Below, piece after piece: positions 874 to 23,515 of a stretch of DNA of 64,000 bases (its first letter is position 1; the number at the start of each line of letters is the position of its first letter). Location of the stretch: IMG/VR virus record IMGVR_UViG_3300047157_000186. One strand, 5' to 3'. Below the pieces are notes generated by a model. That model was not told the DNA's origin, searched no databases, and saw nothing but the letters and a program-made list of their open reading frames with translations. This DNA is from a virus (Duplodnaviria > Caudoviricetes). The translations under genes were made by a program, and so were the position numbers.

Positions 874-3800
874 ATGCCAACTGTTTCAAATCAAAACTTA
901 ATCGTAGTATTACCAGAATTAGCTAGGATAGTTAGAGGACAATCATCAAGTATTGGAATCACACTACACCAAGACCACGTAGGTAATCAACTAAACATCG
1001 GGGTAACCGATAACGTAATCGTAGATGTTTATAACGCTGAAAATCAATTAATATATTCAGTAAGTAAATCTAATGGTACCTTATTATTTGGTGCTGCAAA
1101 TACTGATTTACGAGGTGCTATATCACTTGAATTTAGTGCAGAACAAACTGCTGCATTACCATTTGGAGATTTAAATTTCCATGGTGCTATTAAATGTAAA
1201 ATCACAGTAGTTAGAGGAATTACACAAACACAACTACCAACATTAAAACTTGCCAACATCTATGATGCTGGTGATAAAATAGGTGATATAGTTGCAAGTA
1301 GATTCACATTACCAGGTGCTGTATATAAAGTTAAGTCTTTAAGTTCTACAGACAAACCTGCAGGAGGAGAATTAGTTGTAAATGATGAAGATCCTAATGG
1401 TGTTACTAAAATTAGAATTGCTTTAACAGACGATAAAGGATATAGAAATAATTATTTAGAGTCTATATTATTAAATAGAATCAATGTTGACGGAGTTAAA
1501 GTTTCTTTATTCTTAACTAACGTAAATAACAATAGTGAATATTCTGTATTTGAAATCAAAAGCTGGTCATATGTAGATGTATTAAATGTTAATCCTAGTA
1601 ATCCAATAAACAACGATTCAAGTGATGCTATTGAATTACAAGTACAATCAGAAGGAAATTCATTTATCCCTGGATCTGATTACAAGATCGGAGTAGGTGA
1701 TGAACTTGGTATATTTAGTGAATCTTATTCTTCACCTTCAGGTATTTCAATTATACCACAAGGCGCTGTAGCTATTGACGATGTTAATAGTCTTACGTTT
1801 TCAGGAGGTGCAGTTATTAATAATTTAAATGACGGAAAAGTTGAAGTTGTTTTCCCTTCAGTAACAGTTACAACTTCTGGAACATCTGGTTCTTCAGGAA
1901 TTGATGGTTCTTCAGGAATTGATGGTGCTAAAGGTGATCAAGGTGATGCTGGTGTTCAAGGTGAACAAGGTATAAGAGGATTAGATGGAACTTCAGGTAA
2001 AGATGGTGAAACTGGTGGAACTGGAGCACAAGGTCAAGACGGAACTTCAGGCACTGATGGAACAAGCGGAGTTGATGGAGCGCAAGGTCTAAGAGGATTA
2101 GATGGAACTTCAGGTAAAGACGGTTTAGCTGGAACATCTGGTATTAATGGAATTAACGGTCAAGCTGGAACTTCAGGACTTGATGGTGCTAAAGGTGACG
2201 ATGGAACTTCAGGTATTAACGGAGTTAATGGAGTTAATGGAGTTGACGGTGCTAAAGGTGATCAAGGTGAACAAGGTAATCAAGGACCGCAAGGACCTAA
2301 AGGAGATAAAGGTGACGCTGGAGCTAAAGGTGATATAGGTAATGCTGGAACATCTGGTATTAGTGGAACATCAGGAATTAATGGAACATCAGGAATTGAT
2401 GGAACAAGCGGAGTTAATGGAGTTGACGGTGTACAAGGTCTTAAAGGTGATCAAGGTGCAAGAGGTAATGACGGAACATCAGGTAAAGATGGAGCCAATG
2501 GAGTTGATGGAAACCATGGAACTTCAGGAGTTTCAGGTTCTTCAGGAGTTGATGGAACATCAGGTAAAGATGGAATAAACGGAAACGATGGAGCTAAAGG
2601 TGACAGAGGTGATCAAGGACTTCCAGGAAATAATGGTAACGATGGAACTTCAGGAGTTAACGGAACTTCAGGAGTTAACGGAACAAGTGGAGTTGACGGT
2701 GCTAAAGGTGATCAAGGTAATATTGGTAACAATGGTGTAGACGGAACTTCAGGAATTAGTGGAACATCTGGTATTGACGGAACTTCAGGAGTTAATGGAG
2801 TTGACGGAAACGACGGAACTTCAGGTGTTGATGGAACATCAGGAATTAATGGAGCTAAAGGTGATCAAGGTGATCAAGGACCTAAAGGTGATCAAGGCGA
2901 CGCTGGAGCTAATGGAGTTGACGGAAACAATGGAACTTCAGGAGTTAGTGGAACATCTGGTATTGACGGAACTTCAGGAGTTAATGGAGTTGACGGAAAC
3001 GACGGAACTTCAGGACTTTCTGGAACATCAGGAATTAATGGAACATCAGGAATTGATGGAGTTAAAGGTGATCAAGGTGACGCTGGAACTTCTGGAATTA
3101 ATGGAGTTAAAGGTGATCAAGGTGACGCTGGAACTTCAGGAGTTGATGGAACTTCAGGTGTTGATGGTGGCACTGGAACTTCAGGAGTTGATGGAACATC
3201 AGGAATTAATGGAGCTAAAGGTGATCAAGGTGACGCTGGAACTTCAGGAGTTGATGGAACTTCAGGTGTCGATGGAACTTCAGGTGCCGATGGTGGCGCT
3301 GGAACTTCAGGAGTTGATGGAACATCAGGAATTAATGGAGCTAAAGGTGATCAAGGTGACGCTGGAACTTCAGGAGTTAATGGAACATCTGGAACAAATG
3401 GAACTTCAGGAGTTAATGGAACATCAGGAATTAATGGAGTTAAAGGTGATCAAGGTGACGCTGGAACTTCAGGTATTGATGGTGTTGACGGAGCTAATGG
3501 ATCCACTGGACCACAAGGACCGGAAGGGCCGCAAGGGCCGACAGGAGCATCAGGTGCAAATGGATCTGGAATTGCAGGTGGAGGAACAACAGGACAAGCA
3601 CTTGTTAAATCTTCAAATGTTGATTACGAAGTTGAATGGTCAGACGTTGCAACTGGATCAGGTGGAACTTATTACTGTGTAAGAGCAGAATATACTTCAA
3701 CGCAAGCTTTAGGTGGATGTGAATTTATCGATCCAAGTGGATCAGGTGTATTTGAAACATCTAACGCAACTATAGGAACACGTGCTGGTGATAATCAAGA

Positions 3801-4119
3801 ATTTTCATTCAGTGGTCAAAATCAACCACCAAGAGCAATTCTTGTATATGCATATCAAGCCAACAATTCAAGATACGTTATAACGCATTTAGATGGTGGT
3901 GGTAACAACGCATCATTCTATGCACAAGGTATTACAGAATCTGCACACACATCTAACTTTAGTATTGGTAATCAAGTTACAACTGATTTATTCACTAACT
4001 TCAGTGCAGCTAAAATTAAATTAGATTTAAGTATGGGTAATATTGATGCCATAAGAAATGCTGGTGGATTTGGTCAAACAACTAAAGAAGCTCACGCATT
4101 TATAATATTCAAATTTTAA
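874..4119 (+). CDS. collagen-like (Gly-X-Y) fibre protein with globular N- and C-terminal domains
   Basis: About 570 aa of near-continuous Gly-X-Y (GTS/GVD/GAK/GDQ) flanked by non-repetitive domains; GATATATA at 839-846 upstream. Confidence 0.85.
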   Translation: MPTVSNQNLIVVLPELARIVRGQSSSIGITLHQDHVGNQLNIGVTDNVIVDVYNAENQLIYSVSKSNGTLLFGAANTDLRGAISLEFSAEQTAALPFGDLNFHGAIKCKITVVRGITQTQLPTLKLANIYDAGDKIGDIVASRFTLPGAVYKVKSLSSTDKPAGGELVVNDEDPNGVTKIRIALTDDKGYRNNYLESILLNRINVDGVKVSLFLTNVNNNSEYSVFEIKSWSYVDVLNVNPSNPINNDSSDAIELQVQSEGNSFIPGSDYKIGVGDELGIFSESYSSPSGISIIPQGAVAIDDVNSLTFSGGAVINNLNDGKVEVVFPSVTVTTSGTSGSSGIDGSSGIDGAKGDQGDAGVQGEQGIRGLDGTSGKDGETGGTGAQGQDGTSGTDGTSGVDGAQGLRGLDGTSGKDGLAGTSGINGINGQAGTSGLDGAKGDDGTSGINGVNGVNGVDGAKGDQGEQGNQGPQGPKGDKGDAGAKGDIGNAGTSGISGTSGINGTSGIDGTSGVNGVDGVQGLKGDQGARGNDGTSGKDGANGVDGNHGTSGVSGSSGVDGTSGKDGINGNDGAKGDRGDQGLPGNNGNDGTSGVNGTSGVNGTSGVDGAKGDQGNIGNNGVDGTSGISGTSGIDGTSGVNGVDGNDGTSGVDGTSGINGAKGDQGDQGPKGDQGDAGANGVDGNNGTSGVSGTSGIDGTSGVNGVDGNDGTSGLSGTSGINGTSGIDGVKGDQGDAGTSGINGVKGDQGDAGTSGVDGTSGVDGGTGTSGVDGTSGINGAKGDQGDAGTSGVDGTSGVDGTSGADGGAGTSGVDGTSGINGAKGDQGDAGTSGVNGTSGTNGTSGVNGTSGINGVKGDQGDAGTSGIDGVDGANGSTGPQGPEGPQGPTGASGANGSGIAGGGTTGQALVKSSNVDYEVEWSDVATGSGGTYYCVRAEYTSTQALGGCEFIDPSGSGVFETSNATIGTRAGDNQEFSFSGQNQPPRAILVYAYQANNSRYVITHLDGGGNNASFYAQGITESAHTSNFSIGNQVTTDLFTNFSAAKIKLDLSMGNIDAIRNAGGFGQTTKEAHAFIIFKF
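1879..3585 (+). repeat. 9-bp-unit degenerate tandem repeat encoding Gly-X-Y, with longer near-identical blocks
   Basis: Recurring GGAACTTCAGGA, GGTGATCAAGGT and GGAGTTGATGGA units; a long block near 2740-2820 recurs near 2930-3010. Confidence 0.9.
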
Positions 4120-9466: not shown

Positions 9467-12190
9467 ATGTCTCAATTGAAACTAAAACAAATACTTGACT
9501 TTTTATCTTCTTCACCAACAACAGGTGAGGTATTGTCATATAATTCAAGTACCGGAAAGTATGAAAACCAACAATTACCAAACACGTTTGGTCTTCCTTA
9601 TGTTTATAATAGCGCAACAAATCCCACGACAGTTTCTTCTGGTGATTTAGCGTTTGATAATCCTAGTAATCCTAGTAAAATAATTATAAGTGAAACTAAT
9701 GCTAGAGGTGGTTCTGCAACTGTAACATTAAATGCTGCAGTCGCTTCATCGAATAATTATAAATCTATTATTGTATTAGCAAAATCAACTGACGGTAATG
9801 CAAATAAATCATTCTATGTAACAGGAAACACAACTGCTTCTGGACAAAGAACATTTAGCTTACAACCTATTTCAAGTTCTAATTGGAACAATGTTAGTGA
9901 TAATGATTCTTTGTTTATGTTTATCCAACCTATCGGTGATGTTGGAACATCAGGAACTTCAGGATCAAATGGTTCAAGTGGAAGTTCAGGAACTAATGGA
10001 ACGAGCGGTGTAAGTGGAACTTCAGGTTCTTCAGGAACTAATGGATCAAGTGGATCTTCAGGAACTAATGGAACTTCAGGAACTGATGGAACTAGCGGAT
10101 CTTCAGGTTCAAGTGGAAGTTCAGGAACAGATGGAACTTCAGGAACGAATGGAACTTCAGGTACTAATGGATCAAGTGGATCTTCAGGAACTGATGGAAC
10201 AAGTGGAGTTAAAGGTGATCAAGGTGATAATTATAGTGGAGCAACTTTATCTGGGAATAATTTAATATTGACGCATTCTGTCAATGGAGCTGAAAATGTA
10301 GGTAGAGTAGTATATGTTGGAACTTCAGGAACTGATGGTTCAAGCGGAAGTTCAGGTTCAAGCGGATCTTCAGGAATTACAGGTACAATTGCAGTAGGAA
10401 CAGTATCTACTGGTTTAGAAAATACTCCAGTAAGTGTTACTAATACTGGAACATCAACTGCAGCAGAATTTGATTTTACTATTCCTGTTGGTGCAACTGG
10501 AGCAAAAGGTGCTCCTGGAACTCCAGCTATTAATGGAACTAGTGGATCTTCTGGATCTAGTGGTGTTAAAGGAGACAAAGGAGCTCCAGGTACAAGTGGT
10601 ACTGATGGAACTTCAGGAACTAACGGAAGTTCAGGAACTGACGGTTCAAGTGGAAGTTCAGGTTCAAGTGGAAGTTCAGGAACTGATGGAACTTCAGGAA
10701 CGAATGGAACTTCAGGAACGAATGGAACTTCAGGAACTGATGGATCAAGTGGTTCTTCTGGAACTGATGGAAGTTCAGGAACTGACGGAACTTCAGGAAC
10801 GAATGGAACTTCAGGAACGAATGGAACTAGCGGATCTTCAGGTTCAAGTGGAAGTTCAGGTACTGATGGAACTTCAGGAACTAATGGAACTTCAGGAACG
10901 AATGGAACTAGTGGAACTAATGGAAGTTCAGGTTCTTCAGGAACTGACGGAACTAGTGGAACTAACGGAAGTTCAGGAACTGATGGAACTTCTGGTACAA
11001 ATGGTACAAGTGGAACGAATGGAACAAACGGAAGTTCAGGTTCTTCAGGAACAAATGGAACAAACGGATCTTCAGGATCAAGTGGATCTTCAGGTGCACA
11101 AGGTAATCCAGGTTGGGGTGTTTCAATGCAAGGACAAGTAGCTACATCATCAAATTTACCAACATCTGGTAATTCAGATGGTGATGCATATATAGTACAA
11201 TCAGACGATTCTCTTTGGGTATTTACACAAGCAGACGGTTGGATTGGCGGTGGTTCTATTCAAGGACCAGCTGGTTCTTCAGGAACTAATGGAACAAATG
11301 GAAGTTCAGGTTCTTCAGGAACTGATGGAACTTCAGGATCAAGTGGAAGTTCAGGTACTGATGGAACTTCAGGAACGAATGGAACAAGTGGAACTGATGG
11401 AACTTCAGGATCAAGTGGATCAAGTGGAAGTTCAGGTACTGATGGAACTTCAGGAACGAATGGAACAAGTGGTACTGATGGAACTTCAGGATCAAGTGGA
11501 TCAAGTGGAAGTTCAGGTACTGACGGAACCTCAGGAACGAATGGAACTTCAGGTTCTTCAGGAACTGATGGAACAAGTGGAACTAATGGAACTTCAGGAT
11601 CAAGTGGATCAAGCGGAACTTCAGGAACGAATGGAACTAGTGGAACGAATGGAACTTCAGGAACGAATGGAACTTCAGGAACGAATGGAACTTCAGGTTC
11701 TTCAGGAACGAATGGAACAAACGGATCTTCTGGATCGAGTGGTTCTTCAGGTTCTTCAGGTCTAAAAGGTAATACTGGTACTTCTAATACCTATGCAACT
11801 GCGATGAATCAACATACAAAAACAGATTCAAATGTTGAGCATCATGATTTATATTTAACAGGTGCTTTAAAAAGAGATTTTATATCTGTTAACGGTGTTG
11901 GCGGTGTTTATGACATCAAACCTGATCAAGGTGACGCATTCGTATTTACAGCAACTGGTTTAATTGATATCACAATGTCTAATATAGGTTCTGACAACGT
12001 AGGTCAATCTGGAACTATAGTAATCATAAACGGTGCAGGTGCAGGATACAATGCATTACCATCTTATATGAAAACACCTTCAGGTGCTGACATTCAATGG
12101 GTAACTACTCAAGGTGCAGTATCTATTATATCGTATATTATAATAGATGTTGACGCTGTATTAGTTAACTACATTGGAAATTTTGCGTAA
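9467..12190 (+). CDS. Gly-X-Y repeat (collagen/polyglycine-like) fibre protein
   Basis: Four Gly-X-Y segments dominated by GTS/GTN/GTD/GSS, separated by short globular inserts; GATATATA at 9431-9438 upstream. Confidence 0.85.
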   Translation: MSQLKLKQILDFLSSSPTTGEVLSYNSSTGKYENQQLPNTFGLPYVYNSATNPTTVSSGDLAFDNPSNPSKIIISETNARGGSATVTLNAAVASSNNYKSIIVLAKSTDGNANKSFYVTGNTTASGQRTFSLQPISSSNWNNVSDNDSLFMFIQPIGDVGTSGTSGSNGSSGSSGTNGTSGVSGTSGSSGTNGSSGSSGTNGTSGTDGTSGSSGSSGSSGTDGTSGTNGTSGTNGSSGSSGTDGTSGVKGDQGDNYSGATLSGNNLILTHSVNGAENVGRVVYVGTSGTDGSSGSSGSSGSSGITGTIAVGTVSTGLENTPVSVTNTGTSTAAEFDFTIPVGATGAKGAPGTPAINGTSGSSGSSGVKGDKGAPGTSGTDGTSGTNGSSGTDGSSGSSGSSGSSGTDGTSGTNGTSGTNGTSGTDGSSGSSGTDGSSGTDGTSGTNGTSGTNGTSGSSGSSGSSGTDGTSGTNGTSGTNGTSGTNGSSGSSGTDGTSGTNGSSGTDGTSGTNGTSGTNGTNGSSGSSGTNGTNGSSGSSGSSGAQGNPGWGVSMQGQVATSSNLPTSGNSDGDAYIVQSDDSLWVFTQADGWIGGGSIQGPAGSSGTNGTNGSSGSSGTDGTSGSSGSSGTDGTSGTNGTSGTDGTSGSSGSSGSSGTDGTSGTNGTSGTDGTSGSSGSSGSSGTDGTSGTNGTSGSSGTDGTSGTNGTSGSSGSSGTSGTNGTSGTNGTSGTNGTSGTNGTSGSSGTNGTNGSSGSSGSSGSSGLKGNTGTSNTYATAMNQHTKTDSNVEHHDLYLTGALKRDFISVNGVGGVYDIKPDQGDAFVFTATGLIDITMSNIGSDNVGQSGTIVIINGAGAGYNALPSYMKTPSGADIQWVTTQGAVSIISYIIIDVDAVLVNYIGNFA

Positions 12191-12215: not shown

Positions 12216-15200
12216 ATGAAGAATATAGGATTTTCAAGAATCGACTTTTGGAGTACCGGAAGTGCACAGAATACATCTAAGGGTACACTTGTAGCTAAGA
12301 ATACTACTTGGGCTACTTCTAAAACTACATCTGAAAATAGAAATACTTCGAGAACTACTGAAAAGGTACGTAATACTAGTCAATCTACAACAACAACGTG
12401 GATAACTACATGGTCAACTAGTAAATCAACTACAACAACTTTCAATACATCTCGTAGTACTAGTACTGTATATGCAACTTCAAGATCAACGACAACATCA
12501 TGGACAACATCATGGAACACATCTAGAGAAACATCTTTAGAAACTGATAGAACTACAACAACAACATGGTCGACTTCTAAAAACACGTCGCAATCAACTG
12601 AGAGAACTACAACTACTACATGGACAACTAGTTGGACAACTAGTCAATCTACATTGTACCCTGTTGAAACTACTTGGAACACAAGTCAATCCACATCTAG
12701 AACGACAACTACAGTATACACTACATATTGGACCACTTCTTGGAATACAAGTAAATCAACGATTACTTCTTATATTACTACATATACAACAACGTGGTCA
12801 ACTACTAGAGCTACGACAACGTCATATAATACAACTTGGACAACTAGTAAATCGACAACTAGATCTACTAGTCGTGACACTACAACAACTTTTAATACAA
12901 ATCAGTCAACGTCTAGAAGCACAACGACTGTATATAATACAACTTGGATTACAAGTCAGACAACGTCTAGAAGTACTGAACATTCAACAATAACTAAATT
13001 TAGTACAAGTCAGTCAACGTCTCATTCGACAACGACCGTATATAATACAACTTGGATTACAAGTCAGACAACAAGTAGAGGAACAGAACATTCGACAACG
13101 ACTACGTTTAATACAAGTCAGTCAACTACTAAATCTACGACGACTACATTTACAACAACATGGTCAACTAGCAAATCAACTTCTAGATCTACTACTAAAT
13201 CGACAACGACAACGTTTAATACAAACCAATCGACAAGTAGATCCACTAAAACAACATGGACTACTACTTGGTCGACTAGTAAATCAACATCTAAAGGAAC
13301 TACAAGAAATACCACAACAACATGGGTAACAAGTAGACCAACTGAACATACAACGACAACTACATTTAATACGACGTGGTCAACTAGTAAATCGACAACT
13401 ACTACTTTTAACACTACATGGAAAACTTCATGGAACACAACTAGAAGTACTAATCGTTCTACAACAACTACATTCAATACTAGTCAATCAACTTCGCATT
13501 CTACAACAACTGCGTGGACAACTACTTGGGTGACAAGTCAAGGAACTAGTAGAGAAACAAGTAAGAATACAACAACTAGATTTATTACTAGTAGAAGTAC
13601 AGAACATGTCACTACTACGACGTTTAATACAACATGGGCAACTAGTAAATCTACTACAACTTCATGGACTACAACTTTTGGTACAACTTTCAATACAACT
13701 AGATCTACTAATAAAAGTACAACGACTACGTTTAATACAACATGGTCAACTAGTAGAGCAACAACAACTTCATGGACAACTTCATGGAACACAACTGTAC
13801 TGACTTCCAGATCTACTTATAAAAACACAACGACTACGTTTAATACAACATGGTCAACTAGCAGATCGACAACGACAACGTTTAATACGACTAGATCAAC
13901 TACGACTACATTTAATACAAGTCAATCAACTAATAAGAATACAACAACTAGTTGGAATACGACTAGATCAACGACAACGACTTGGAACACAACTAGGGCT
14001 ACGACGACTGTATATAATACATCATGGAATACAACTAAGTCAACGACGACTACGTTCAATACAACTAGGTCAACAACAACGACGTTTAATACAAATAAGT
14101 CAACGACAACTGTATTTAATACATCTTGGAATACAACTAGATCTACTACAACTACATTTGCAACCAGTAAATCGACAACAACAACATTTGTAACTAGTAG
14201 AGGTACAGAACATTCGACAACAACAACTTATAATACAACTAGATCTACATCAACTAGTTGGAATACAACTAAGTCAACAACGACTGTGTATAATACTTCA
14301 TGGAATACAACTAAGTCAACGACAACAACGTTTTCAACTAGTAAATCGACGACAACAACGTTTTCAACTAGCCAATCAACTAATAAGAATACGACAACAA
14401 CGTTTAATACGACTAGATCTACATTAACTACATGGATTACAAGTAGATCAACTGAACGTGTGACAACAACAACATGGAATACAACGCGTTCAACAACGAC
14501 TACGTTTAATACAACGCGTTCAACAACGACTACGTTTGCAACTAGTAAATCTACAACGACTACGTTTAATACATCTTGGAATACAAGTAAGAATACAACA
14601 ACAACGTTTGCAACGAGTAAATCCACTAGAACTACTTGGACAACTTCATGGAACACTGCGCGAAATACAACGACAACATGGAATACAACTAAGTCAACGA
14701 CAACTACGTTTGCAACAAGTAGAGGTACATCACGTGCTACGACAACAACATGGATAACTAGTAAGAATACAACGACAACGTTTGCAACTAGTAAATCTAC
14801 AACGACAACGTTTGCAACTAGTAAATCTACGACAACAACATATAAAACAAGTTGGAATACTGCAATATCAACGACAACAACATTTGCCACGTCTAGAGTA
14901 ACTGATAGAAATACTAGTAAATCGACAACAACAACGTTTAATACTGGATACTCTAGATCAACAACTAAATCAACATCATGGAGTACATTAGTTCCTGCAG
15001 ATAATAGTTCAGGTGGAGGTGCAGGTGTTTTGACTTATTGGAACACAACAGTTACATATAACACATCTTTTTCAACCGCGTTATACGTCAATACATCTAG
15101 AGGAACTTCTAGAAACACTGTTGAAGAATGTATAGTTGAAGGAACACTAGTTCATATTGCCGAAGGTGAACAAAGACTAGTTGAAACTTTAGTACATGGT

Positions 15201-15665
15201 CAAAGTATTTTAACTATGGATGGATCGTTTAATGTAGATAACGTTAGTGATTTAAGTCTTATCAGAGAAGAAGAAGTATACACGAATTCATTATCTAATG
15301 AACATACTGCTGTAAATATTTGGAGAGCAGATGTTATAGGAACGGTTAATATAAATGACGGACAATTAAGAACTACCATGGGACACATACACATCATAAA
15401 AAGAGATGGTGAGTGGCAAGCAAGGACAGCGGATCAGTTAGAAATTGGTGATGTTATGTTTAAGCTTGACTATGGAGAATTTTTGATAGAGTCTTTAGAA
15501 ATGGATGAAGTTAATCAATATACAGTTTATAAATTAGACGTAGAACCTAACGATACATTCTTTGCAAATGGAATTTTAACACATAATAAAAAAGATGCAT
15601 TATGTTCACACGAGGATAAATGTACGCGAGGGCATCCATGTGAGGATAGATTTTACCCTTGTTAA
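12216..15665 (+). CDS. giant Thr-rich repeat protein with C-terminal Hint (intein-like) domain
   Basis: About 900 aa of STTTT(F/W)NT(T/S)(R/K)-type repeats, then CIVEGTLV...TTMGH...VYKLDVEPNDTFFANGILTHN and a 25-aa Cys-rich tail. Confidence 0.85.
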   Translation: MKNIGFSRIDFWSTGSAQNTSKGTLVAKNTTWATSKTTSENRNTSRTTEKVRNTSQSTTTTWITTWSTSKSTTTTFNTSRSTSTVYATSRSTTTSWTTSWNTSRETSLETDRTTTTTWSTSKNTSQSTERTTTTTWTTSWTTSQSTLYPVETTWNTSQSTSRTTTTVYTTYWTTSWNTSKSTITSYITTYTTTWSTTRATTTSYNTTWTTSKSTTRSTSRDTTTTFNTNQSTSRSTTTVYNTTWITSQTTSRSTEHSTITKFSTSQSTSHSTTTVYNTTWITSQTTSRGTEHSTTTTFNTSQSTTKSTTTTFTTTWSTSKSTSRSTTKSTTTTFNTNQSTSRSTKTTWTTTWSTSKSTSKGTTRNTTTTWVTSRPTEHTTTTTFNTTWSTSKSTTTTFNTTWKTSWNTTRSTNRSTTTTFNTSQSTSHSTTTAWTTTWVTSQGTSRETSKNTTTRFITSRSTEHVTTTTFNTTWATSKSTTTSWTTTFGTTFNTTRSTNKSTTTTFNTTWSTSRATTTSWTTSWNTTVLTSRSTYKNTTTTFNTTWSTSRSTTTTFNTTRSTTTTFNTSQSTNKNTTTSWNTTRSTTTTWNTTRATTTVYNTSWNTTKSTTTTFNTTRSTTTTFNTNKSTTTVFNTSWNTTRSTTTTFATSKSTTTTFVTSRGTEHSTTTTYNTTRSTSTSWNTTKSTTTVYNTSWNTTKSTTTTFSTSKSTTTTFSTSQSTNKNTTTTFNTTRSTLTTWITSRSTERVTTTTWNTTRSTTTTFNTTRSTTTTFATSKSTTTTFNTSWNTSKNTTTTFATSKSTRTTWTTSWNTARNTTTTWNTTKSTTTTFATSRGTSRATTTTWITSKNTTTTFATSKSTTTTFATSKSTTTTYKTSWNTAISTTTTFATSRVTDRNTSKSTTTTFNTGYSRSTTKSTSWSTLVPADNSSGGGAGVLTYWNTTVTYNTSFSTALYVNTSRGTSRNTVEECIVEGTLVHIAEGEQRLVETLVHGQSILTMDGSFNVDNVSDLSLIREEEVYTNSLSNEHTAVNIWRADVIGTVNINDGQLRTTMGHIHIIKRDGEWQARTADQLEIGDVMFKLDYGEFLIESLEMDEVNQYTVYKLDVEPNDTFFANGILTHNKKDALCSHEDKCTRGHPCEDRFYPC
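15129..15587 (+). other. Hint / bacterial intein-like domain, no homing endonuclease
   Basis: Cys1, block B TxxH (TMGH), block F (VYKLDVEPNDTFFANGI) and terminal His-Asn; about 153 aa. Confidence 0.85.
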
Positions 15666-15724
15666 TAGAGAATAATCTAGAAGATAAAGAAATGAAATAT
15701 ATAAAAAAATAACAGAGATAGAAA

Positions 15725-18649
15725 ATGCCTACTACTTATTTTAATACAACATGGTTAACTGCTGGCTCTAGAAATACGTACGTATCTACTACAAAGACTA
15801 GGTCTACTTCCAGATACACGTCATATAATAGGGTAACTTCGAGAAATACGGCGAAGACTACATATTGGAACGTAAGTACAAGTAAGGCAACGACAACATC
15901 ATGGACTACTAAAGTTACTACTTCATGGAACACAACTAGGGGAACAACGACATCGAGAAGCACAAACCAACAAACATCTCATGCAACAACAACTACATGG
16001 AATACAACTAGAGCTACAACGACTACATGGAATACAACTAGAACAACCGAAACAAAATGGAACACAACTAAGTCAACGACTACATCATTTAATACATCTT
16101 GGAATACAACTCGAGCTACAACTACAACGTTTGCAACTAGTAAGGCAACGGCAACAACATTTAGTACAAGTCAGTCAACTGCTAAAGACACAACGACAAC
16201 ATGGAATACAACTAGAGCAACATTAACAACATGGGTCACAAGTAGATCAACTGAACGTGCTACGACAACAACATGGAATACAACTCGAGCTACGACAACA
16301 ACGTTCAATACAACTCGTGCAACGACAACTACATTTGCAACTAGTAAATCGACAACGACTGTATTTAATACATCTTGGAATACAAGTAAGAATACGACTA
16401 CTACATTTGCAACTAGTAAATCCACTAGAACTACTTGGACAACTTCATGGAATACAACTCGAGCTACAACTACAACGTTTAATACAACTCGAGCTACAAC
16501 TACCACGTGGTCTACAAGTCAGTCAACGTCTCATTCGACAACGACTACGTTTGTAACTAGTAAAAATACAACGACTACGTTTAAAACTAGTAAATCAACG
16601 ACTACATCGTATAACACATCTTGGAATACAACTAGGTCAACGACAACAACGTTTAATACTTCCAAGTCAACAACGACTACGTTTATAACTAGTAGGTCAA
16701 CAGAGCGTGTTACTACAACTACATGGGCAACTAGTAAATCTACGACTACTACATTTGCAACAAGTAAATCTACTACAACAACATTTGTAACTAGTAGAGG
16801 AACAGAACATTCCACGACTACTACATTTGCAACTAGTAAATCGACAACAACTACGTTTATAACTAGCCAGTCAACTAGAACTACTTGGACTACAACATGG
16901 TCAACTAATAGATCAACGACAACAACGTTCAATACAACTCGTGCAACGACAACTACATTTAACACAAGTCAATCGACAAGTAAATCCACTAAAACAACAT
17001 GGACAACTTCTTGGAATACTGTCAGAGGAACTAGTAAAGTAACTAGTAAATCGACAACGACTACGTTTAACACAAGTCAATCGACGAGTAGAGCAACTAC
17101 AACAACATGGACTACTACTTGGGCAACATCAAGAAATACAACTAGAGGAACTAGTAAAACGACAACGACTACGTTTAACACAAGTCAATCGACTGAAAGA
17201 GAAACGACTACTGTTTATAACACGTCATGGAACACAACGAGAACTACGATAACTTCATACACTACTTCATGGACTACTTCATGGAATACAAGTAGAGGCA
17301 CATCGAAAACTACAACAACAGTTTATAATACATCATGGTCAACTAGTAAATCAACTGTAACTACATTCAATACTACTTGGATAACAAATCAGAATACAAC
17401 GAGATCTACTTCTAGAACAACAACTACTACTTTTAATACAAGTCAGTCAACTTCTAGAACAACGACTACGTCGTATAACACATCTTGGAACACTACAAGA
17501 TCCACTGAAACTGCATGGACTACTTCATGGGTGACAACGTTTAATACAAACAGGTCAACGTATAAAAATACAACGACTACGTTTACAACAACATGGTCAA
17601 CTAGTAAATCTACAACGACTACGTTTACAACTACGTTCACAACAACGTTTAATACTAATCAGTCAACAAGTAAATCTACAACGACTACATTTAATACAAC
17701 GTGGTCAACTAGTAGAGCAACGACTACGAGTTATACAACTTCATGGACTACTTCATGGAACACAACTAGAGGAACAGAACATGTGACTACTACTGTTTAT
17801 AACACGTCATGGAACACAACTAGATCGACAACTACAGTTTACAATACTTCATGGACAACTTCATGGAACACAACTAGAGGAACAGAACATTCGACTACGA
17901 CTACGTTTACAACAACATGGTCAACTAGTAAATCAACTGTAACTACGTTCAACACTACTTGGACTACGTCATGGAACACAACTTATGGAACGTCTCATTC
18001 AACTACGACAACGTTTAATACGTCTCAGTCTACAAATCATGGAACGTCTCATTCGACAGTAACTATATGGAGTACATCTAGAGGAACTAACAAAGGAACA
18101 GAACACGCAACGACAACTGCATGGACAACGACTTGGGAAACTAGTAGAATTACGAACTATTCACGTACGACATCATGGACTACGCAATATCAAACTAGTC
18201 AGTCAACGGTAACTACATTTAACACAACGTGGTTAACAACATTTAATACCAATCAGTCAACAACAACTGCATGGGTGACATCGTGGGTGACAACATTTAG
18301 TACGTCTCAAACAACGTCTAAAACGACAACGACTACATTTAACACAAGTCACTCGACAACGACAACGTTTAATACGACTAGATCAACTACGACTACATTC
18401 AATACGAATGCAGCTACATCTAAATCGACAACGACAACGTGGTCAACTATTTATAGTGTTACTACTTCGTGGAATACTGCATGGAACACAACAACAACGT
18501 GGAACACGACGAGATCTACAACAAGTGCTATTACTACAACGTGGAGTACAGATTACGAAGTGCAAGAAACTTGGTATTCAACTAACGCACCATTAGATGT
18601 TTATAATACAAATAGACAATGGAGAGTAAACAGTTATAACGGTAACTAG
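15725..18649 (+). CDS. giant Thr-rich repeat protein, paralogue of 12216..15665
   Basis: Same 10-residue-type Thr/aromatic/basic repeat over nearly the whole 974 aa; AATATATA at 15696-15703 upstream. Confidence 0.85.
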   Translation: MPTTYFNTTWLTAGSRNTYVSTTKTRSTSRYTSYNRVTSRNTAKTTYWNVSTSKATTTSWTTKVTTSWNTTRGTTTSRSTNQQTSHATTTTWNTTRATTTTWNTTRTTETKWNTTKSTTTSFNTSWNTTRATTTTFATSKATATTFSTSQSTAKDTTTTWNTTRATLTTWVTSRSTERATTTTWNTTRATTTTFNTTRATTTTFATSKSTTTVFNTSWNTSKNTTTTFATSKSTRTTWTTSWNTTRATTTTFNTTRATTTTWSTSQSTSHSTTTTFVTSKNTTTTFKTSKSTTTSYNTSWNTTRSTTTTFNTSKSTTTTFITSRSTERVTTTTWATSKSTTTTFATSKSTTTTFVTSRGTEHSTTTTFATSKSTTTTFITSQSTRTTWTTTWSTNRSTTTTFNTTRATTTTFNTSQSTSKSTKTTWTTSWNTVRGTSKVTSKSTTTTFNTSQSTSRATTTTWTTTWATSRNTTRGTSKTTTTTFNTSQSTERETTTVYNTSWNTTRTTITSYTTSWTTSWNTSRGTSKTTTTVYNTSWSTSKSTVTTFNTTWITNQNTTRSTSRTTTTTFNTSQSTSRTTTTSYNTSWNTTRSTETAWTTSWVTTFNTNRSTYKNTTTTFTTTWSTSKSTTTTFTTTFTTTFNTNQSTSKSTTTTFNTTWSTSRATTTSYTTSWTTSWNTTRGTEHVTTTVYNTSWNTTRSTTTVYNTSWTTSWNTTRGTEHSTTTTFTTTWSTSKSTVTTFNTTWTTSWNTTYGTSHSTTTTFNTSQSTNHGTSHSTVTIWSTSRGTNKGTEHATTTAWTTTWETSRITNYSRTTSWTTQYQTSQSTVTTFNTTWLTTFNTNQSTTTAWVTSWVTTFSTSQTTSKTTTTTFNTSHSTTTTFNTTRSTTTTFNTNAATSKSTTTTWSTIYSVTTSWNTAWNTTTTWNTTRSTTSAITTTWSTDYEVQETWYSTNAPLDVYNTNRQWRVNSYNGN

Positions 18650-18697: not shown

Positions 18698-18771
18698 GCT
18701 CTAAAATAAATGAGATAAATAATTAAACAAACACAGATTATTGTGTATAACTATTAAATTACTTTTTATAT

Positions 18772-19683
18772 ATGGAAATGTTTAACAAAAAGGTTCTAGA
18801 TGAAAGAATTGGGCCTCTAAAGAAAAACACAAAATTAGAACCGCTTGAACAAGTAGAGCGATACGTTTTAAGAAAATGTAGAGAACTTGGATTAGAACAC
18901 AGTTATGATGTTATAGCAGAAGAAATGCCATACTTCAAAACAATGGGATATACAGAATATGCCACTTGTTTTTTACTGCAACCACTAAACCTTAAAATGA
19001 GAAGAGAACAAGTAGCCGACGCTTTAGCACATGATGTCGAACACGTTTCTGATTGGGTATCTTATTTTAGAGAAAACATAGAAAAAGACCAAGCTAATAA
19101 ATATCAAAAGCGCAACAAAGACTTCGACAGATATGAAGATAAAAGCACTTTGGTTATTTTACCAGGTTCAAATAAGCTTAAAGAAAACTGTTGTTTAAAT
19201 AAATTAATTGAAGTTGCTGATAAACACAAAGGTGATGTTTATTTTAAACCACATCCTATTACTACACATGCAGTCATAGGCGAAATTAAAGATTTATTTG
19301 GTGAAGAATCTATTTTACCTAGAGACATAGATCTTTATTACTTTTTACAAAAAGCTAAAACAGTATATAGCACACATATTAGTGAAAGCGCATTATATTC
19401 TGTTGTCCTTGAAAAAGAAGTTTATCCAATGGATGTGTGGAATAATATAAGTAGAGGATCTTTTTATACTATAAACTCCAGTCTTTATGATAATAAAGAA
19501 AGAGGCGCAGAATGGATTAATCAAGTATTTTCTAGTTACAAATCTGGAATTATAAATCCAGCTATTGATGAAGATTGGAAAGGTAAAGTAGATGATTACA
19601 TGAATTATATGTATGAAAAAAGAGAATATTACAAAGGTTGGTTTATAGACGCTCCACCTAAAGTTAAAAGAAATAAGAACTAA
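18772..19683 (+). CDS. capsule polysaccharide biosynthesis (KpsS/KpsC-like) GT-B protein
   Basis: VYFKPHP motif followed by LYYFLQKAKTVYSTHISESALYSVVLEKEV, the pattern of a GT-B C-terminal Rossmann domain. Confidence 0.5.
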   Translation: MEMFNKKVLDERIGPLKKNTKLEPLEQVERYVLRKCRELGLEHSYDVIAEEMPYFKTMGYTEYATCFLLQPLNLKMRREQVADALAHDVEHVSDWVSYFRENIEKDQANKYQKRNKDFDRYEDKSTLVILPGSNKLKENCCLNKLIEVADKHKGDVYFKPHPITTHAVIGEIKDLFGEESILPRDIDLYYFLQKAKTVYSTHISESALYSVVLEKEVYPMDVWNNISRGSFYTINSSLYDNKERGAEWINQVFSSYKSGIINPAIDEDWKGKVDDYMNYMYEKREYYKGWFIDAPPKVKRNKN

Positions 19684-19693
19684 ATTATAAATT

Positions 19694-19720
19694 AAACCTA
19701 CACTCGTGTGGGTTTTTTTT
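19694..19720 (+). terminator. Rho-independent terminator
   Basis: AAACCTACAC...GTGTGGGTTT plus a T-tract. Confidence 0.7.
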
Positions 19721-19732
19721 GCTACATTAATA

Positions 19733-20752
19733 ATGAGAATATTATTTTATGCGGGCTATCAAAAGAATAAATTTGATGGTGATACAAATGAAGGATTAGC
19801 AGGAACTGAAATTGCTATAATTAATATAGCCGAAGAGATGGTTAAATTTGGTTATAAGGTTGTGGTTTCTGGTGAAGTAAAAGATTCTGGTTTAATTAAT
19901 GGAGTAGAATGGATATCAACACATGAATTACATGAAAAATATTTTGATCAGTTTGATTATATTATATCTGCAAGTTATATTCATTTTTTAAAAGAGTTTG
20001 AAAAATATTCAGCAAAGAAAGTATTTTGGGCACATAATACACATCATCACCCATGGTGGAATCACGAAGTGTTAGAAGACGCAAACCTTTTAACACAACA
20101 AGTTGATCATACAATTTGTTTGACTAATTGGCATAAGAATCACTGGGCACATACATATAATATACCTTTAAATAAAATCTCGGTGATTGGTAATGCCATT
20201 GATCCTTCAACATTTAGTGGTACTCCTGAAAAAGTTAAAGGTAAATTCATATATAGTTCTGCACCCGAACGTGGCTTATTGGAATTATTAAAAAACTGGC
20301 CAAAGATAAAAACTATAATGCCACATGCAACACTAGACATTTATTCTCCTGGATATTCTATAGCAAATCATACTGACTATTCATTTAATAAGTTTAAAGA
20401 AGTAACATGTCACGGTAGTGTAGATCAAAAAACATTACATAATGCCATGCTACGTGCAGAATATTGGTGTTATATAACTGATTATGAAGAAACATATTGT
20501 ATAACTGCACTTGAAATGCAATATGCCAAAGTATTACCTATTGTTACTAAAGTTGCTGCATTAAAAGAAACTGTAAATAGTGGAGTTATCTTAGAAAGAA
20601 ATGAAACAAATTGGAATCAGGCTATACAAATACTAGGTACACTAAGTAGTGGACTTAAGGATAAATCAATTAATGATGCATATAAATGGTCTAAACAACA
20701 AACATGGAATGTTAGATCATATGATTGGAAAAACATATTAGAATCTATATGA
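19733..20752 (+). CDS. GT-B glycosyltransferase (GT4-like)
   Basis: FIYSSAPERGL and EETYCITALEMQ (E-x7-E); ATG 19733 preferred over GTG 19706, which lies inside the terminator. Confidence 0.85.
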   Translation: MRILFYAGYQKNKFDGDTNEGLAGTEIAIINIAEEMVKFGYKVVVSGEVKDSGLINGVEWISTHELHEKYFDQFDYIISASYIHFLKEFEKYSAKKVFWAHNTHHHPWWNHEVLEDANLLTQQVDHTICLTNWHKNHWAHTYNIPLNKISVIGNAIDPSTFSGTPEKVKGKFIYSSAPERGLLELLKNWPKIKTIMPHATLDIYSPGYSIANHTDYSFNKFKEVTCHGSVDQKTLHNAMLRAEYWCYITDYEETYCITALEMQYAKVLPIVTKVAALKETVNSGVILERNETNWNQAIQILGTLSSGLKDKSINDAYKWSKQQTWNVRSYDWKNILESI

Positions 20753-22083
20753 AAATAGATAAAATTTATATTATAAGCTTGAACGCTGGAGATCCAAGCA
20801 TTCAAAGAAGTATTGCCGAGAGGGTAGATCAACTTGGTATGCCATATTCTGTAGCGTGGGAAATAGTTCAAGGTTTTGATGGAACTTCAGGCAATTTATT
20901 AGATGGACACAGTGTATATAATTTATGGAATTTAGGATCTGATTCATGGAATGATTGGTGGAAAAGAGATGTTACTGGCGGAGAAGCAGGTTGTGCAATT
21001 AGTCACTTAAATATATGGAAAAATATAATAGAAGACAATATCAATTGTGCATTAATACTAGAAGATGATTTTGTTTCAGTAGCTCCACTTACAAATCCAG
21101 TTATTCCAAACACAGAATGGGATATTGCATTTTTAGGTAGAAATGCTATATGTCCTAAGGATGAAAAAAGAATTGATGTAAGTAATAAATGGGTAACAGC
21201 ACTTAGTAGTTATAATACACATGCATATGTAATTAAAAGAGACGCTGCGAAAACGCTAGTCAATGATTACAACTTTCAACAAAATCTAATTGCGCCCGAT
21301 GAATTCTTAACGGCAACATATACAGATCATAGAAGACAAGATATTAATATACTGTTTCCACCAAAACTTAAAGCGATAGCTCCAGTTAATAATTGGATAG
21401 AACAAAATAGACCACACGAAAAATCCACGACAGAACCAAATGATGCCAATATTAATTTATTGAAAAAACAACCTTATTTCGAAATACTAGATGACAGTGA
21501 TTGGGATTCATGGAAATCAAAGTATGTAAACGAAACAGTGGCTAAGGGTGAATATGATTTAATGATAGATGATATAGGAAATAATATATATGAATTTCCA
21601 TTATTTACCGAAAAGTTCTGTAAAGAAGCAGTTGCTTTAGCAGAGGTTATGAATAAGTGGACAAAAGATAGACATGAATTTTATCCAACAAATGATGTCT
21701 TATTACCAGAAATAGGATTAGATAATATTTATAATAGAGTTATAAAAGAAATAGTTTCCCCACTTTGTATACATTTATGGGAATTAGAAGGTGCAGGTTG
21801 GGATAATATGAATACCGAAAACTTTATGGTAAGATATACTACTGATAGACAATCTCATTTAAGTTTACATCATGACTTTAGTCATATTACAATGGTAGTA
21901 AAATTAAATGATGAGTTTGATGGTGGCGGCACGTGGTTTCCAAAATATAAAATATTAGCAAATCCAAAATTAGTAGGTACTGCAACTATTCACCCTGGAA
22001 TGATCACACATAAACATGGTGCCAGACCAATACATAGTGGGAAAAGATACATCAACGTATCATTTATGAGAAAGAATAATTAA
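20749..22083 (+). CDS. GT25-family glycosyltransferase fused to a PLOD-type 2OG-Fe(II) lysyl hydroxylase domain
   Basis: N-terminal IYIISLN, GEAGCAISHLNIWKNI, ALILEDD; C-terminal FMVRY...LHHDFS...GGGTWF...HPGMITHKHG...RYINVSF; ATGA overlap with the upstream gene. Confidence 0.85.
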   Translation: MKIDKIYIISLNAGDPSIQRSIAERVDQLGMPYSVAWEIVQGFDGTSGNLLDGHSVYNLWNLGSDSWNDWWKRDVTGGEAGCAISHLNIWKNIIEDNINCALILEDDFVSVAPLTNPVIPNTEWDIAFLGRNAICPKDEKRIDVSNKWVTALSSYNTHAYVIKRDAAKTLVNDYNFQQNLIAPDEFLTATYTDHRRQDINILFPPKLKAIAPVNNWIEQNRPHEKSTTEPNDANINLLKKQPYFEILDDSDWDSWKSKYVNETVAKGEYDLMIDDIGNNIYEFPLFTEKFCKEAVALAEVMNKWTKDRHEFYPTNDVLLPEIGLDNIYNRVIKEIVSPLCIHLWELEGAGWDNMNTENFMVRYTTDRQSHLSLHHDFSHITMVVKLNDEFDGGGTWFPKYKILANPKLVGTATIHPGMITHKHGARPIHSGKRYINVSFMRKNN

Positions 22084-22097
22084 CAAAACAAAACAAT

Positions 22098-22526
22098 ATG
22101 AAAAAAGAGATTACGTTTAACGAGATCATTGGAGATGACGGGCATTTAGTGTCACCTGTCTTAAAAAATGGCGCTAAGAATTATTTAATTGATATTGACG
22201 GTACAATTACTGATGATGTACCAAATGAAGAACCAGAAAGAATGTCAGTAGTTTTACCATATACTGGTGCTGTAGAAACACTTAACAGATGGTTTGACGA
22301 AGGACATGTAGTTACATTCTTTACATCAAGAACCGAAGAAGTTAGAGATATCACAGAAACTTGGCTAAATAAACATGGTTTTAAATATCATGGTCTATTA
22401 ATGGGTAAACCAAGAGGTGGAAATTATCATTGGGTTGATAACCACATTGTCAAGGGTACAAGATATGAAGGTAAGTGGGCAGATTTAGTTAGAGAAGAAA
22501 GAACGATAGAAGTGTTTCCTTCGTAG
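22098..22526 (+). CDS. HAD-superfamily phosphatase (capless)
   Basis: LIDIDGT motif I, FFTSR motif II, MGKP and DN motifs. Confidence 0.8.
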   Translation: MKKEITFNEIIGDDGHLVSPVLKNGAKNYLIDIDGTITDDVPNEEPERMSVVLPYTGAVETLNRWFDEGHVVTFFTSRTEEVRDITETWLNKHGFKYHGLLMGKPRGGNYHWVDNHIVKGTRYEGKWADLVREERTIEVFPS

Positions 22527-22537
22527 ATATATATTAA

Positions 22538-23470
22538 ATGAGAAGCATATACACATTTGAAGATTTTCTTTTAGAAGCTGATGAAACTGATCAGCTTAAA
22601 AAAATCTGTATCGCAGTTTCTGTAGAAATGCCAGATAATAAGTATGTATATGATTCTAAATATAACGTCTCTAAGGTATTTGAATTATTAGATAAAAATA
22701 AAAAAGCAGAACCTTCTGAAACACCAGTTCTTAATTATGCCAATTGGAAAATTGAGAAAATGATAAAAGACGGATGGGATTCTAAATTTATTTATAATTC
22801 AATTGAAGCTAAACAAAGAGTTTCTTCCAAAGTAAAATGGTGCAAAACTCATGAAGAATCTGAGCATACACCTAAAGTAGTTTTTGATAAATCAAATTTA
22901 AAAGAACTTAAATATCCTATCATAGCTAAACCAGATAATAGATATAGTGGACAGGGTATTATGGTTTTTAAAGAAGAAAAGGATTTAGAAGGTGTTGATT
23001 TAGATCAGTTTTCAGTTTTCTCAGAAAAGATAAATATCGTAGATGAACTTAGAATTTATTGTTGGAAAGGAAAACCTTTGATGCTAGTACATAGAGTGCC
23101 TGCAAATGAAGAAACAAAAAATCTATCTAAAAAAGCAGATGATAAACTGGTATTTAATTACGAATTATCAAAGTCACCTATAACAGAAAATTTAGTTAGT
23201 GTTGTTGAAGAATTTTCAAAAGAACATAATGATTTAGATTTTTATTCGGTAGATATTGTTATAGATGATAAAGATCATCCTTATGTTATTGAAATGTCAT
23301 CAGAACCTGGACCAGTTTTCGGTGTTATGGGACATGTATATAAAGAAATGTATAAGGACTATTATGGAGAAGATGTTTCGGATAAAACTAATAAAATAAT
23401 TGACGCTTATATAGAAGAGGACATTAATACAACGATTGCTTCAGATGAATCTAGATTCAAAAGAAGATAA
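22538..23470 (+). CDS. ATP-grasp (RimK-like) ligase with N-terminal leader motif
   Basis: YPIIAKPDNRYSGQGIMV, ELRIY, FYSVDIV...PYVIEMSSEPG; N-terminus MRSIYTFEDFLLE. Confidence 0.75.
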   Translation: MRSIYTFEDFLLEADETDQLKKICIAVSVEMPDNKYVYDSKYNVSKVFELLDKNKKAEPSETPVLNYANWKIEKMIKDGWDSKFIYNSIEAKQRVSSKVKWCKTHEESEHTPKVVFDKSNLKELKYPIIAKPDNRYSGQGIMVFKEEKDLEGVDLDQFSVFSEKINIVDELRIYCWKGKPLMLVHRVPANEETKNLSKKADDKLVFNYELSKSPITENLVSVVEEFSKEHNDLDFYSVDIVIDDKDHPYVIEMSSEPGPVFGVMGHVYKEMYKDYYGEDVSDKTNKIIDAYIEEDINTTIASDESRFKRR

Positions 23471-23515
23471 ATCGAATAAATAAAAAGATAAATAGAAAGA
23501 ATTAAAAATAGAATT

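Follow-up and report, generated by a model that had tools for sequence, protein, structure and literature searches.

A Bacteriophage Gene Predicted to Encode a GT25 Glycosyltransferase Fused to a Collagen Lysyl Hydroxylase-Type Domain

Introduction

The hydroxylation and glycosylation of collagen lysines are regarded as a hallmark of the animal extracellular matrix, with mimivirus as the sole viral exception. In humans, the lysyl hydroxylase (LH) LH3, or PLOD3, and COLGALT1, or GLT25D1, associate as the "KOGG" complex (PDB 8zgc, 6fxk, 9evj; PMC11897130, PMC12987934). In mimivirus, L230 is described as a bifunctional collagen lysyl hydroxylase/glucosyltransferase, with the virus's own collagen-like proteins as substrate (Luther et al. 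2011, as cited in PMC5802723 and PMC9546862). Prokaryotic collagens have been reviewed as mostly unmodified, and those of bacteriophages as short (PMC8968730); Iyer et al. (2010) predicted that bacterial collagen-like proteins are hydroxylated and sulfated, by other oxygenase families (PMC2938197). In the literature we found no description of a lysyl hydroxylase or of hydroxylysine glycosylation in bacteriophages. Here, we explore a gene at positions 20749-22083 of a 64,000-nucleotide stretch of tailed-phage DNA (IMG/VR record IMGVR_UViG_3300047157_000186; hereafter the window, meaning the whole stretch analysed), which an earlier note, made from the letters alone, had read as a family 25 glycosyltransferase (GT25) fused to a PLOD-type LH domain. 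We put at about 0.72 the probability that its product, GT25-LH, is a cytoplasmic two-step enzyme, which would act on the collagen-like fibre chains of the phage itself, ahead of triple-helix folding.

Results

The gene and the parts that carry the assignment are as follows (all on the + strand).

20749..22083, +: GT25-LH fusion gene, 444 aa, stop-free translation; bifunctional by homology
20749..21438, +: GT25 domain (GT-A fold type), aa ~1-230, placed by alignment with COLGALT1
21496..22080, +: LH-type Fe(II)/2-oxoglutarate dioxygenase domain, aa ~250-444, placed by alignment with L230 and by Foldseek
21061-21069, +: E105-D106-D107, aligned with the COLGALT1 uridine diphosphate (UDP)/Mn site D436/D437 (D106/D107)
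21298-21303, +: D184-E185, aligned with the COLGALT1 "DE" motif D522/E523
22015-22017, +: H423 codon
22045-22047, +: R433 codon

Each half of the protein has its closest described relatives among collagen-modifying enzymes. Pfam recognizes GT25 (PF01755) at aa 4-108 (E 2e-16; 60.8 bits vs a cut-off of 24), and in phmmer searches of the Protein Data Bank (PDB) the N-terminal half finds the catalytic domain of human COLGALT1 best (E 2e-10 to 7e-10), followed more weakly by a bacterial GT25 beta-1,4-galactosyltransferase (2e-4) and mimivirus R655 (7e-3). At the other end, aa 253-440 give E 2e-29 against the LH domain of mimivirus L230 and E 6e-23 against human LH3, and no prolyl 4-hydroxylase (P4H) does better than E 0.18; an OGFOD2-like region, which precedes the oxygenase core, is found by Pfam at aa 269-345. 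An AlphaFold2 model, built with 60 homologues as input, has a mean pLDDT (per-residue confidence) of 89, with a low-confidence, disordered linker between the two domains at aa 235-239. Searched against the PDB with Foldseek, the model returns full-length LH3 on top (E 9e-24), together with the L230 LH domain (6ax6; TM score 0.85 by target, root-mean-square deviation 2.4 A, 36% identity) and COLGALT1 (9evk; E 4e-15, deviation ~3 A), all three ahead of R655, the bacterial GT25 enzyme (E 6e-8) and P4Hs (E ~1e-7). In a library of viral structures the top match is the Megavirus orthologue of L230. By homology and modelled fold, 20749-22083 is therefore a fusion of a GT25 glycosyltransferase with a PLOD/L230-type LH domain, as the earlier note had claimed. 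The comparisons which that note had proposed also came out on its side: the C-terminal domain groups with PLOD/L230 and not with P4Hs, and the N-terminal domain is a GT25, closer to the COLGALT1 catalytic domain than to bacterial lipo-oligosaccharide galactosyltransferases.

Two other identities of the C-terminal domain were considered and set aside. A P4H was rejected on its E-value of 0.18, against 2e-29 for the L230 LH domain; a DNA- or small-molecule oxygenase was rejected since the match concerned, a PHROG family labelled "DNA endonuclease", lies far below the LH matches (E 6e-10) and carries that label without domain evidence. As for the overall layout, the protein is not a full-length COLGALT orthologue, the GT25 domain beginning at residue 4 with no N-terminal non-catalytic, UDP-Gal-binding glycosyltransferase (GT) domain ahead of it and with altered acceptor residues, nor does it have the L230/LH3-type architecture, with no Pfam match in it to the PLOD-type GT domain (PLOD-GT, PF25342).

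A longer frame would be possible from TTG 20725. All 60 aligned homologues, however, share the N-terminus Met-x-Ile-Asp-Lys and begin at that Met, so the start is taken as ATG 20749, which overlaps the stop of a preceding GT4 glycosyltransferase gene by four bases (ATGA). No signal peptide is found. Within the window's clade, the ratio of nonsynonymous to synonymous substitution rates (dN/dS) against orthologues is 0.10-0.15 for the whole gene and 0.05 for the LH domain, which indicates purifying selection.

The residues expected of both activities are largely in place. The motifs that the earlier note had listed can all be read in the translation: HHD at residues 374-376 (codons 21868-21876), THKHG, which contains H423, and an Arg, R433, ten residues after that His; in the N-terminal half, GC..SH..IW and LILEDD (E105-D107). 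By the Pfam and phmmer scores above, such motifs lie well outside what chance would give. In L230, H825, D827 and H877 form the Fe(II) triad, and Y814 and R887 are 2-oxoglutarate ligands (PMC5802723). These align with H374/D376/H423 and with Y363/R433, respectively, all five invariant in the 60 homologues, and L230 A879 aligns with A425. The tail-to-tail LH dimer of L230 is locked by L873, which enters a Tyr pocket made by Y798, Y801 and Y831 (PMC5802723). Here L873 corresponds to I419 (consensus Val), Y798 to an invariant W344, Y801 to E347 and Y831 to I380; with the pocket kept in part only, GT25-LH may or may not form such a dimer. In COLGALT1, D436/D437 constitute the UDP/Mn pair, D522/E523 the catalytic-base "DE" motif, and K470 with Y494/W495 ("YW") the acceptor cleft that holds hydroxylysine-Gly (PMC12987934). 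D184 of the phage domain is invariant, and at least 90% of homologues retain E185 and D107; judging from these positions, the donor chemistry of the GT25 domain is conserved.

A quite different role has to be weighed at this point, in which the GT25 half acts on a glycan (host lipo-oligosaccharide or capsule) and the oxygenase on a small molecule or some unrelated target, as an auxiliary host-takeover enzyme. Pfam does name GT25 an "LPS biosynthesis protein", the automatic annotations of homologues agree, and the locus holds other sugar-related genes (the GT4, a DUF2827 gene, a HAD phosphatase and a weakly polysialyltransferase-like open reading frame, ORF). Yet COLGALT1 outranks the bacterial beta-1,4-galactosyltransferase as a match of the GT25 half both in sequence (E 2e-10 vs 2e-4) and in fold (4e-15 vs 6e-8), the oxygenase half is specifically LH-like, and the covalent fusion of domains whose human counterparts share a residue and a complex (PMC11897130) is hard to explain by unrelated roles. 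We hold this role to be very improbable, and return to collagen lysines as the proposed target.

Two collagen-like genes of the window are the candidate substrates.

874..4119, +: collagen-like fibre protein, 1081 aa, main candidate substrate; Pfam Collagen E 4e-82
9467..12190, +: collagen-like fibre protein, 907 aa, second candidate substrate; Pfam Collagen E 7e-70

The first contains 188 uninterrupted Gly-X-Y triplets, and 16 G-X-K-G sites occur among them (Lys in Y 16 times, in X 4 times). The second, which occupies the fibre slot that comes after DUF2827 in relatives, has 168 triplets, mostly G-T/S-S/N/D, with five such sites (Lys in Y 5, in X 0). The approximate counts of 16 and 5 sites given in the earlier note are thus exact. 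Triplets of the types G-T-S, G-S-S and G-T-N dominate, and the collagens of this phage are the Lys-poor end of their family.

The genomic association of the enzyme with collagen comes from the relatives. Related and control loci are here given L-numbers (L028 is Synechococcus phage S-CAM9, L027 Roseobacter phage CRP-6 and L029 a contig of a Flavobacteriaceae metagenome-assembled genome, MAG). Wherever a related locus has enough flanking sequence, a collagen-like gene is found a short way from that of the enzyme, and this holds over three architectures: a GT4 gene followed by GT25-LH, a GT4-GT25-LH fusion, and a GT25-PLODGT-LH fusion that includes a PLOD-GT domain. In most loci the collagen gene immediately precedes the enzyme gene or the GT4 gene before it; in S-CAM9 and CRP-6 the collagen-like protein is a tail fibre whose Lys are all in Y, encoded one or more genes away. 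Collagen genes occur on seven of the nine IMG/VR contigs with the fusion, and the other two end where the upstream fibre genes would be. The co-occurrence of the fusion with G-X-K-G collagens, put forward in the earlier note as a check, was hence found across related phages (these seven of nine contigs) as well as unrelated ones (S-CAM9 and CRP-6). Over 15 linked loci of the three architectures, Lys occupies Y 1128 times and X 25 times. Four of the collagens may serve as examples.

CRP-6 collagen: Lys in Y 26, in X 0, over 99 triplets
S-CAM9 collagen: Lys in Y 22, in X 0, over 59 triplets
L165 collagen: Lys in Y 113, in X 0, over 178 triplets
L166 collagen: Lys in Y 61, in X 0, over 135 triplets

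As a control, IMG/VR was scanned for nine Gly codons (GG plus any base) one triplet apart, a pattern blind to X and Y, which gave 119 loci, 91 of them with collagen ORFs. After removal of one outlier (L151), the remaining 90 hold 259 Lys in Y and 111 in X, that is 70% in Y; relative to them the linked loci have a Fisher odds ratio of 19 for Lys position, with related sequences counted more than once. Counted per locus, the median density of Lys in Y is 18.5% of triplets in linked loci vs 2.7% in controls (Mann-Whitney p 8e-7). The outlier itself has 229 Lys in Y over 442 triplets, and when 26 control contigs were searched for the LH domain it alone gave a strong match (47% identity, E 4e-60), to a GT4-GT25-LH fusion. 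Collagen composition alone had therefore predicted the enzyme. A second covariation concerns proline. All loci with Pro-rich collagens have a P4H-like gene alongside the module (L024:8223-8837, with equivalents in L006-L011, L029, L028 and L165); the gene is absent only from the window's clade (the window, L002 and L004), whose collagens are Pro-poor: Pro stands in X 7 and 1 times in the window's two collagens vs 23-165 times in most relatives' larger ones. On the evidence of the gene sets, enzyme and substrate co-vary, the P4H-like gene going with Pro-rich collagens. Nor is Lys in Y general among prokaryotic collagens: in Thiolinea, a collagen-like protein of the (G-K-D)n type (L034), not linked to any GT-LH enzyme, carries Lys 64 times in X and never in Y. 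Comparison of loci, as distinct from biochemistry, suggests that the phage's own collagen-like fibres are the targets.

Several observations weigh against this reading. Lys already favours Y in the unlinked viral collagens (the 70% above), so positional bias alone is weak; several nearly complete control contigs among the 26 searched have moderate Lys-in-Y collagens and no LH, so the enzyme is not required for collagens of that kind. Stand-alone LH-like genes, 47-48% identical to aa 250-444, occur in Thiotrichaceae/Thiolinea chromosomes (L031:9866-10597, L030, L032 and L033) among housekeeping neighbours (an rsmE-like methyltransferase, recA, ilvD and a K+ channel), and none of them has a collagen within 10 kb. 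The LH domain is thus not tied to collagen everywhere. In a poorly resolved LH tree, the products of these genes form a supported clade of their own. In the window itself the candidate sites are few (16 and 5), the density of Lys in Y is 6%, within the control range, four Lys stand in X, and the nearest collagen gene ends 8.5 kb upstream of GT25-LH, because two Thr-rich repeat genes and another ORF intervene. Finally, the acceptor cleft is changed: COLGALT1 W495 and K470 are replaced by N156 and N132, Y494 being kept as Y155. GT25 domains linked to a GT4 show "SYNxHAY" at this place, and those linked to a PLOD-GT, as in S-CAM9, retain "YW". Given the replacement of W495 and K470, contacts with the acceptor, and perhaps also the sugar, may not be those of human COLGALT1.

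Part of this evidence would fit an enzyme that modifies another phage or host protein (a non-collagen fibre, the Thr-rich proteins, a host surface or translation protein), with the collagens as bystanders. It would account for the Thiotrichaceae homologues, beside which no collagen is found (the only collagen found in the Thiolinea genome has its Lys in X alone), for the Lys-poor collagens of the window with two Thr-rich fibre genes nearer to the enzyme, and for the replaced acceptor residues. We consider it unlikely: the Lys-in-Y collagen is a conserved neighbour over at least 15 loci and three architectures, whereas the Thr-rich genes are specific to one clade, and the blind control found the enzyme from the composition of a collagen. 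The module might also be a relic in the window's clade, the collagens having drifted to a Ser/Thr-rich, Lys- and Pro-poor state and GT25-LH having little or no function. The low density of Lys in Y, 6% in the window and 2% in L004 of the same clade, as compared with ~18% in relatives, and the P4H-like gene missing from this clade alone, speak for such decay. Nonetheless, the dN/dS values within the clade are low, the catalytic residues are all intact and 16 G-X-K-G sites persist in 874-4119. Moreover, the gene is covered, at 95-100% identity, by contigs from four metatranscriptome runs, which is compatible with expression but, DNA carry-over being possible, not proof of it. A relic thus appears the least probable of the explanations considered.

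Homologues of GT25-LH at full length are abundant in marine metagenomes (365 matches, with identity down to ~50%, on contigs of up to 250 kb). In 12 of 12 related loci, including those with fusions only 40% identical, GT4 is directly upstream of GT25-LH, and in L163 and L165 the two are fused in one polypeptide. A search with the LH domain against 1.84 billion cluster representatives gave 1919 matches at E <=1e-3, 83 of them at <=1e-30, and the architectures of the best 150 were determined.

GT4-GT25-LH: 23 of the best 150 representatives
GT25-LH: 17 of the best 150
GT25-PLODGT-LH: 16 of the best 150
PLODGT-LH: 4 of the best 150
Other GT-fused forms: 4 of the best 150 (GT4-LH 3, PLODGT-GT25-LH 1)
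LH with a P4H-like match: 1 of the best 150
LH alone, many of them fragments: 85 of the best 150

Fusion of LH to GT25, GT4 or PLOD-GT is found, then, in 64 of these 150 best representatives. Seen against them, the arrangement in the window is, by gene content and order, a split form of a common three-enzyme module, in which the GT4 is probably a partner enzyme that may add a further sugar. A complex prediction for GT25-LH with GT4 scored 0.00, giving no verdict and evidence neither way, and phmmer of the GT4 protein against the PDB returned no meaningful match. In the LH-domain tree the window's domain falls in a group mostly fused to GT25 or GT4; with 54 of 128 inner branches below 80% support, no origin or donor is drawn from it. 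Among cultured phages, blastn with the GT25-LH gene found no match. At the protein level, S-CAM9 gene 031 (AOV60634.1, L028:11911-13752, 613 aa) and CRP-6 gp58 (QBQ72782.1, L027:10130-11899, 589 aa) both carry GT25 and an LH3/R699-type glucosyltransferase domain (PF25342), the former with an L230 LH match at E 1e-8 and the latter with a weak 2-oxoglutarate-oxygenase match at the LH position; both are annotated "hypothetical protein". Some homologues bear automatic names such as [quoted passage not shown] and "collagen beta-1,O-galactosyltransferase".

The contigs with triple fusions have further features. The gene after the GT4-GT25-LH fusion of L163:1-2082, on the same contig as L151:2661-9362, is a sulfotransferase. 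In L165:6213-12376 the fusion comes directly after a collagen gene and is followed by a second GT25, a P4H-like gene and a 982-aa GT1/methyltransferase/GT9 protein. On the L151/L163 and L165 contigs, the collagens have Lys at 52-63% of all Y positions.

The remaining genes around GT25-LH are listed below.

7561-8772, +: DUF2827 gene (E 6e-77), conserved upstream of fibre genes in relatives
12216-18649, +: two Thr-rich repeat proteins of ~1000 aa each, encoded after the second collagen gene and before the enzyme genes
18772-19683, +: 303-aa ORF, phrog_26179; weak polysialyltransferase-like match, E 0.02
19733..20752, +: GT4/GT1-type (GT-B) glycosyltransferase gene; Pfam PF13439, PF13692, PF00534
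22098-22526: HAD-family phosphatase, just downstream of GT25-LH

From the 5' end, the order is the collagen gene 874-4119, two ORFs without assignment, DUF2827, a 201-aa ORF, the collagen gene 9467-12190, the two Thr-rich genes (in which neither Pfam nor PHROG found a match), the 303-aa ORF, GT4, GT25-LH, the HAD phosphatase and an ATP-grasp enzyme. In relatives at 57% identity it runs from DUF2827 through two ~1000-aa collagens, a small ORF, a P4H-like 2OG-FeII_Oxy_3 gene, GT4, GT25-LH and HAD to ATP-grasp; there, two Lys-rich collagens come shortly before the enzyme genes, and the Thr-rich genes are not seen. The 303-aa ORF is specific to the window's clade and sits at the position of the relatives' P4H-like gene. 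Since the Thr-rich genes and this extra ORF replace the relatives' arrangement, the comparison suggests that part of the fibre set has changed in this clade, perhaps toward Ser/Thr O-glycosylation. The products of DUF2827 and of the 303-aa ORF may be further glycosyltransferases. The HAD phosphatase has 87-97% amino acid identity where GT25-LH has 57% and ATP-grasp ~40%, and it is absent from more distant loci; it is probably a core gene with a role of its own.

The window as a whole has ~32% G+C, all its large ORFs on the + strand, and baseplate and replication genes. Among deposited phages, the helicase (42126-43856) is closest to those of a 462-kb uncultured phage (46% identity) and of the Lak megaphages of Prevotella (31%), and a 57%-identical copy of the locus (L029) is on the contig binned into a Flavobacteriaceae MAG. 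The source is a large marine tailed phage, with Bacteroidota as the probable host. Almost complete, near-identical DNA of 18700-23500 occurs in seawater and viral metagenomes of more than 12 studies, and in part in six metatranscriptome runs; the metatranscriptome contigs of the four runs noted above often end near gene borders.

Discussion

In this study, we compared a phage-encoded GT25-LH protein and its surroundings with the collagen-modifying enzymes of animals and mimivirus. Our findings are consistent with a model in which the protein would work in the cytoplasm of the infected cell, on unfolded fibre chains, since it lacks a signal peptide; in animal collagen, according to one review, these modifications are impossible once the triple helix has formed (PMC8968730). 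First, by homology, the LH domain with Fe(II), 2-oxoglutarate and O2 would hydroxylate the Y-position Lys of Gly-X-Lys-Gly. The GT25 domain, as an inverting GT-A enzyme with a UDP-sugar, Mn and D184 as base, would then place a hexose on the new hydroxyl; the human homologue of this domain uses UDP-galactose. The GT4, given its invariant adjacency and its fusion in relatives, would act on the same substrate and, most simply, extend the glycan. Which substrate is used, in what order the steps follow, which sugar is transferred and what the phage gains are inferences on our part. The gain might lie in helix stability without hydroxyproline, in protease resistance, or in the surface or receptor properties of the fibres.

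If modified fibres do exist, they would raise the question of their part in adsorption or stability at sea. Compact phage enzymes beside long, Lys-rich collagen fibres would also make the evolutionary origin of PLOD and COLGALT open to test. A broader scenario is that hydroxylysine-linked collagen glycosylation did not arise with animals and giant viruses but is a widespread marine phage and bacterial module (LH, GT25 and either GT4 or PLOD-GT, in shuffled fusions) for the decoration of collagen-like fibres in the cytoplasm of bacteria, with the animal PLOD and COLGALT enzymes descended from that pool and the compact enzymes as ready tools for recombinant collagen; we regard this as tentative and, taken as a whole, rather doubtful. 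Human enzymes express poorly in Escherichia coli, unlike mimiviral R699 (PMC9546862), and the phage family could provide recombinant collagen production with enzymes adapted to the bacterial cytoplasm. S-CAM9 and CRP-6, as cultured phages, are ready experimental systems.

How, then, does GT25-LH stand among the known systems? With mimivirus L230 it shares a viral origin and a layout in which a glycosyltransferase is joined to an LH domain at the C-terminus; the two LH domains are ~36% identical and superpose at a TM score of 0.85, with the same Fe and 2-oxoglutarate residues. Unlike L230, a protein of ~890 aa from a giant virus of a eukaryote, it has 444 aa and belongs to a bacteriophage; its glycosyltransferase half is GT25 and not PLOD-type, and the Leu of the dimer lock is replaced by Ile, with a Tyr pocket that is partly kept. 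Its two types of catalytic domain, LH and GT25, are also those of human LH3 together with COLGALT1, a pair that acts sequentially on the Y-position Lys of Gly-X-Lys-Gly. From COLGALT1, GT25-LH keeps the UDP/Mn site and the catalytic "DE" base; it lacks the N-terminal non-catalytic GT domain of that enzyme as well as the glucosyltransferase and accessory domains of LH3, and its probable second transferase is a GT4 (GT-B), in place of the GT-A domain of LH3. Among phages, S-CAM9 031 and CRP-6 gp58 likewise combine GT25 and LH or LH-like domains near a collagen-like gene. Both, however, are only 28-30% identical to the window's enzyme, have an additional LH3/R699-type glucosyltransferase domain and keep "YW", whereas the window's enzyme is paired with a GT4. 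Human LH3 and COLGALT1 are separate, secreted proteins of the endoplasmic reticulum held in a non-covalent complex; GT25-LH, one polypeptide with a predicted cytoplasmic location, would be the single-chain mirror of that complex (PMC11897130).

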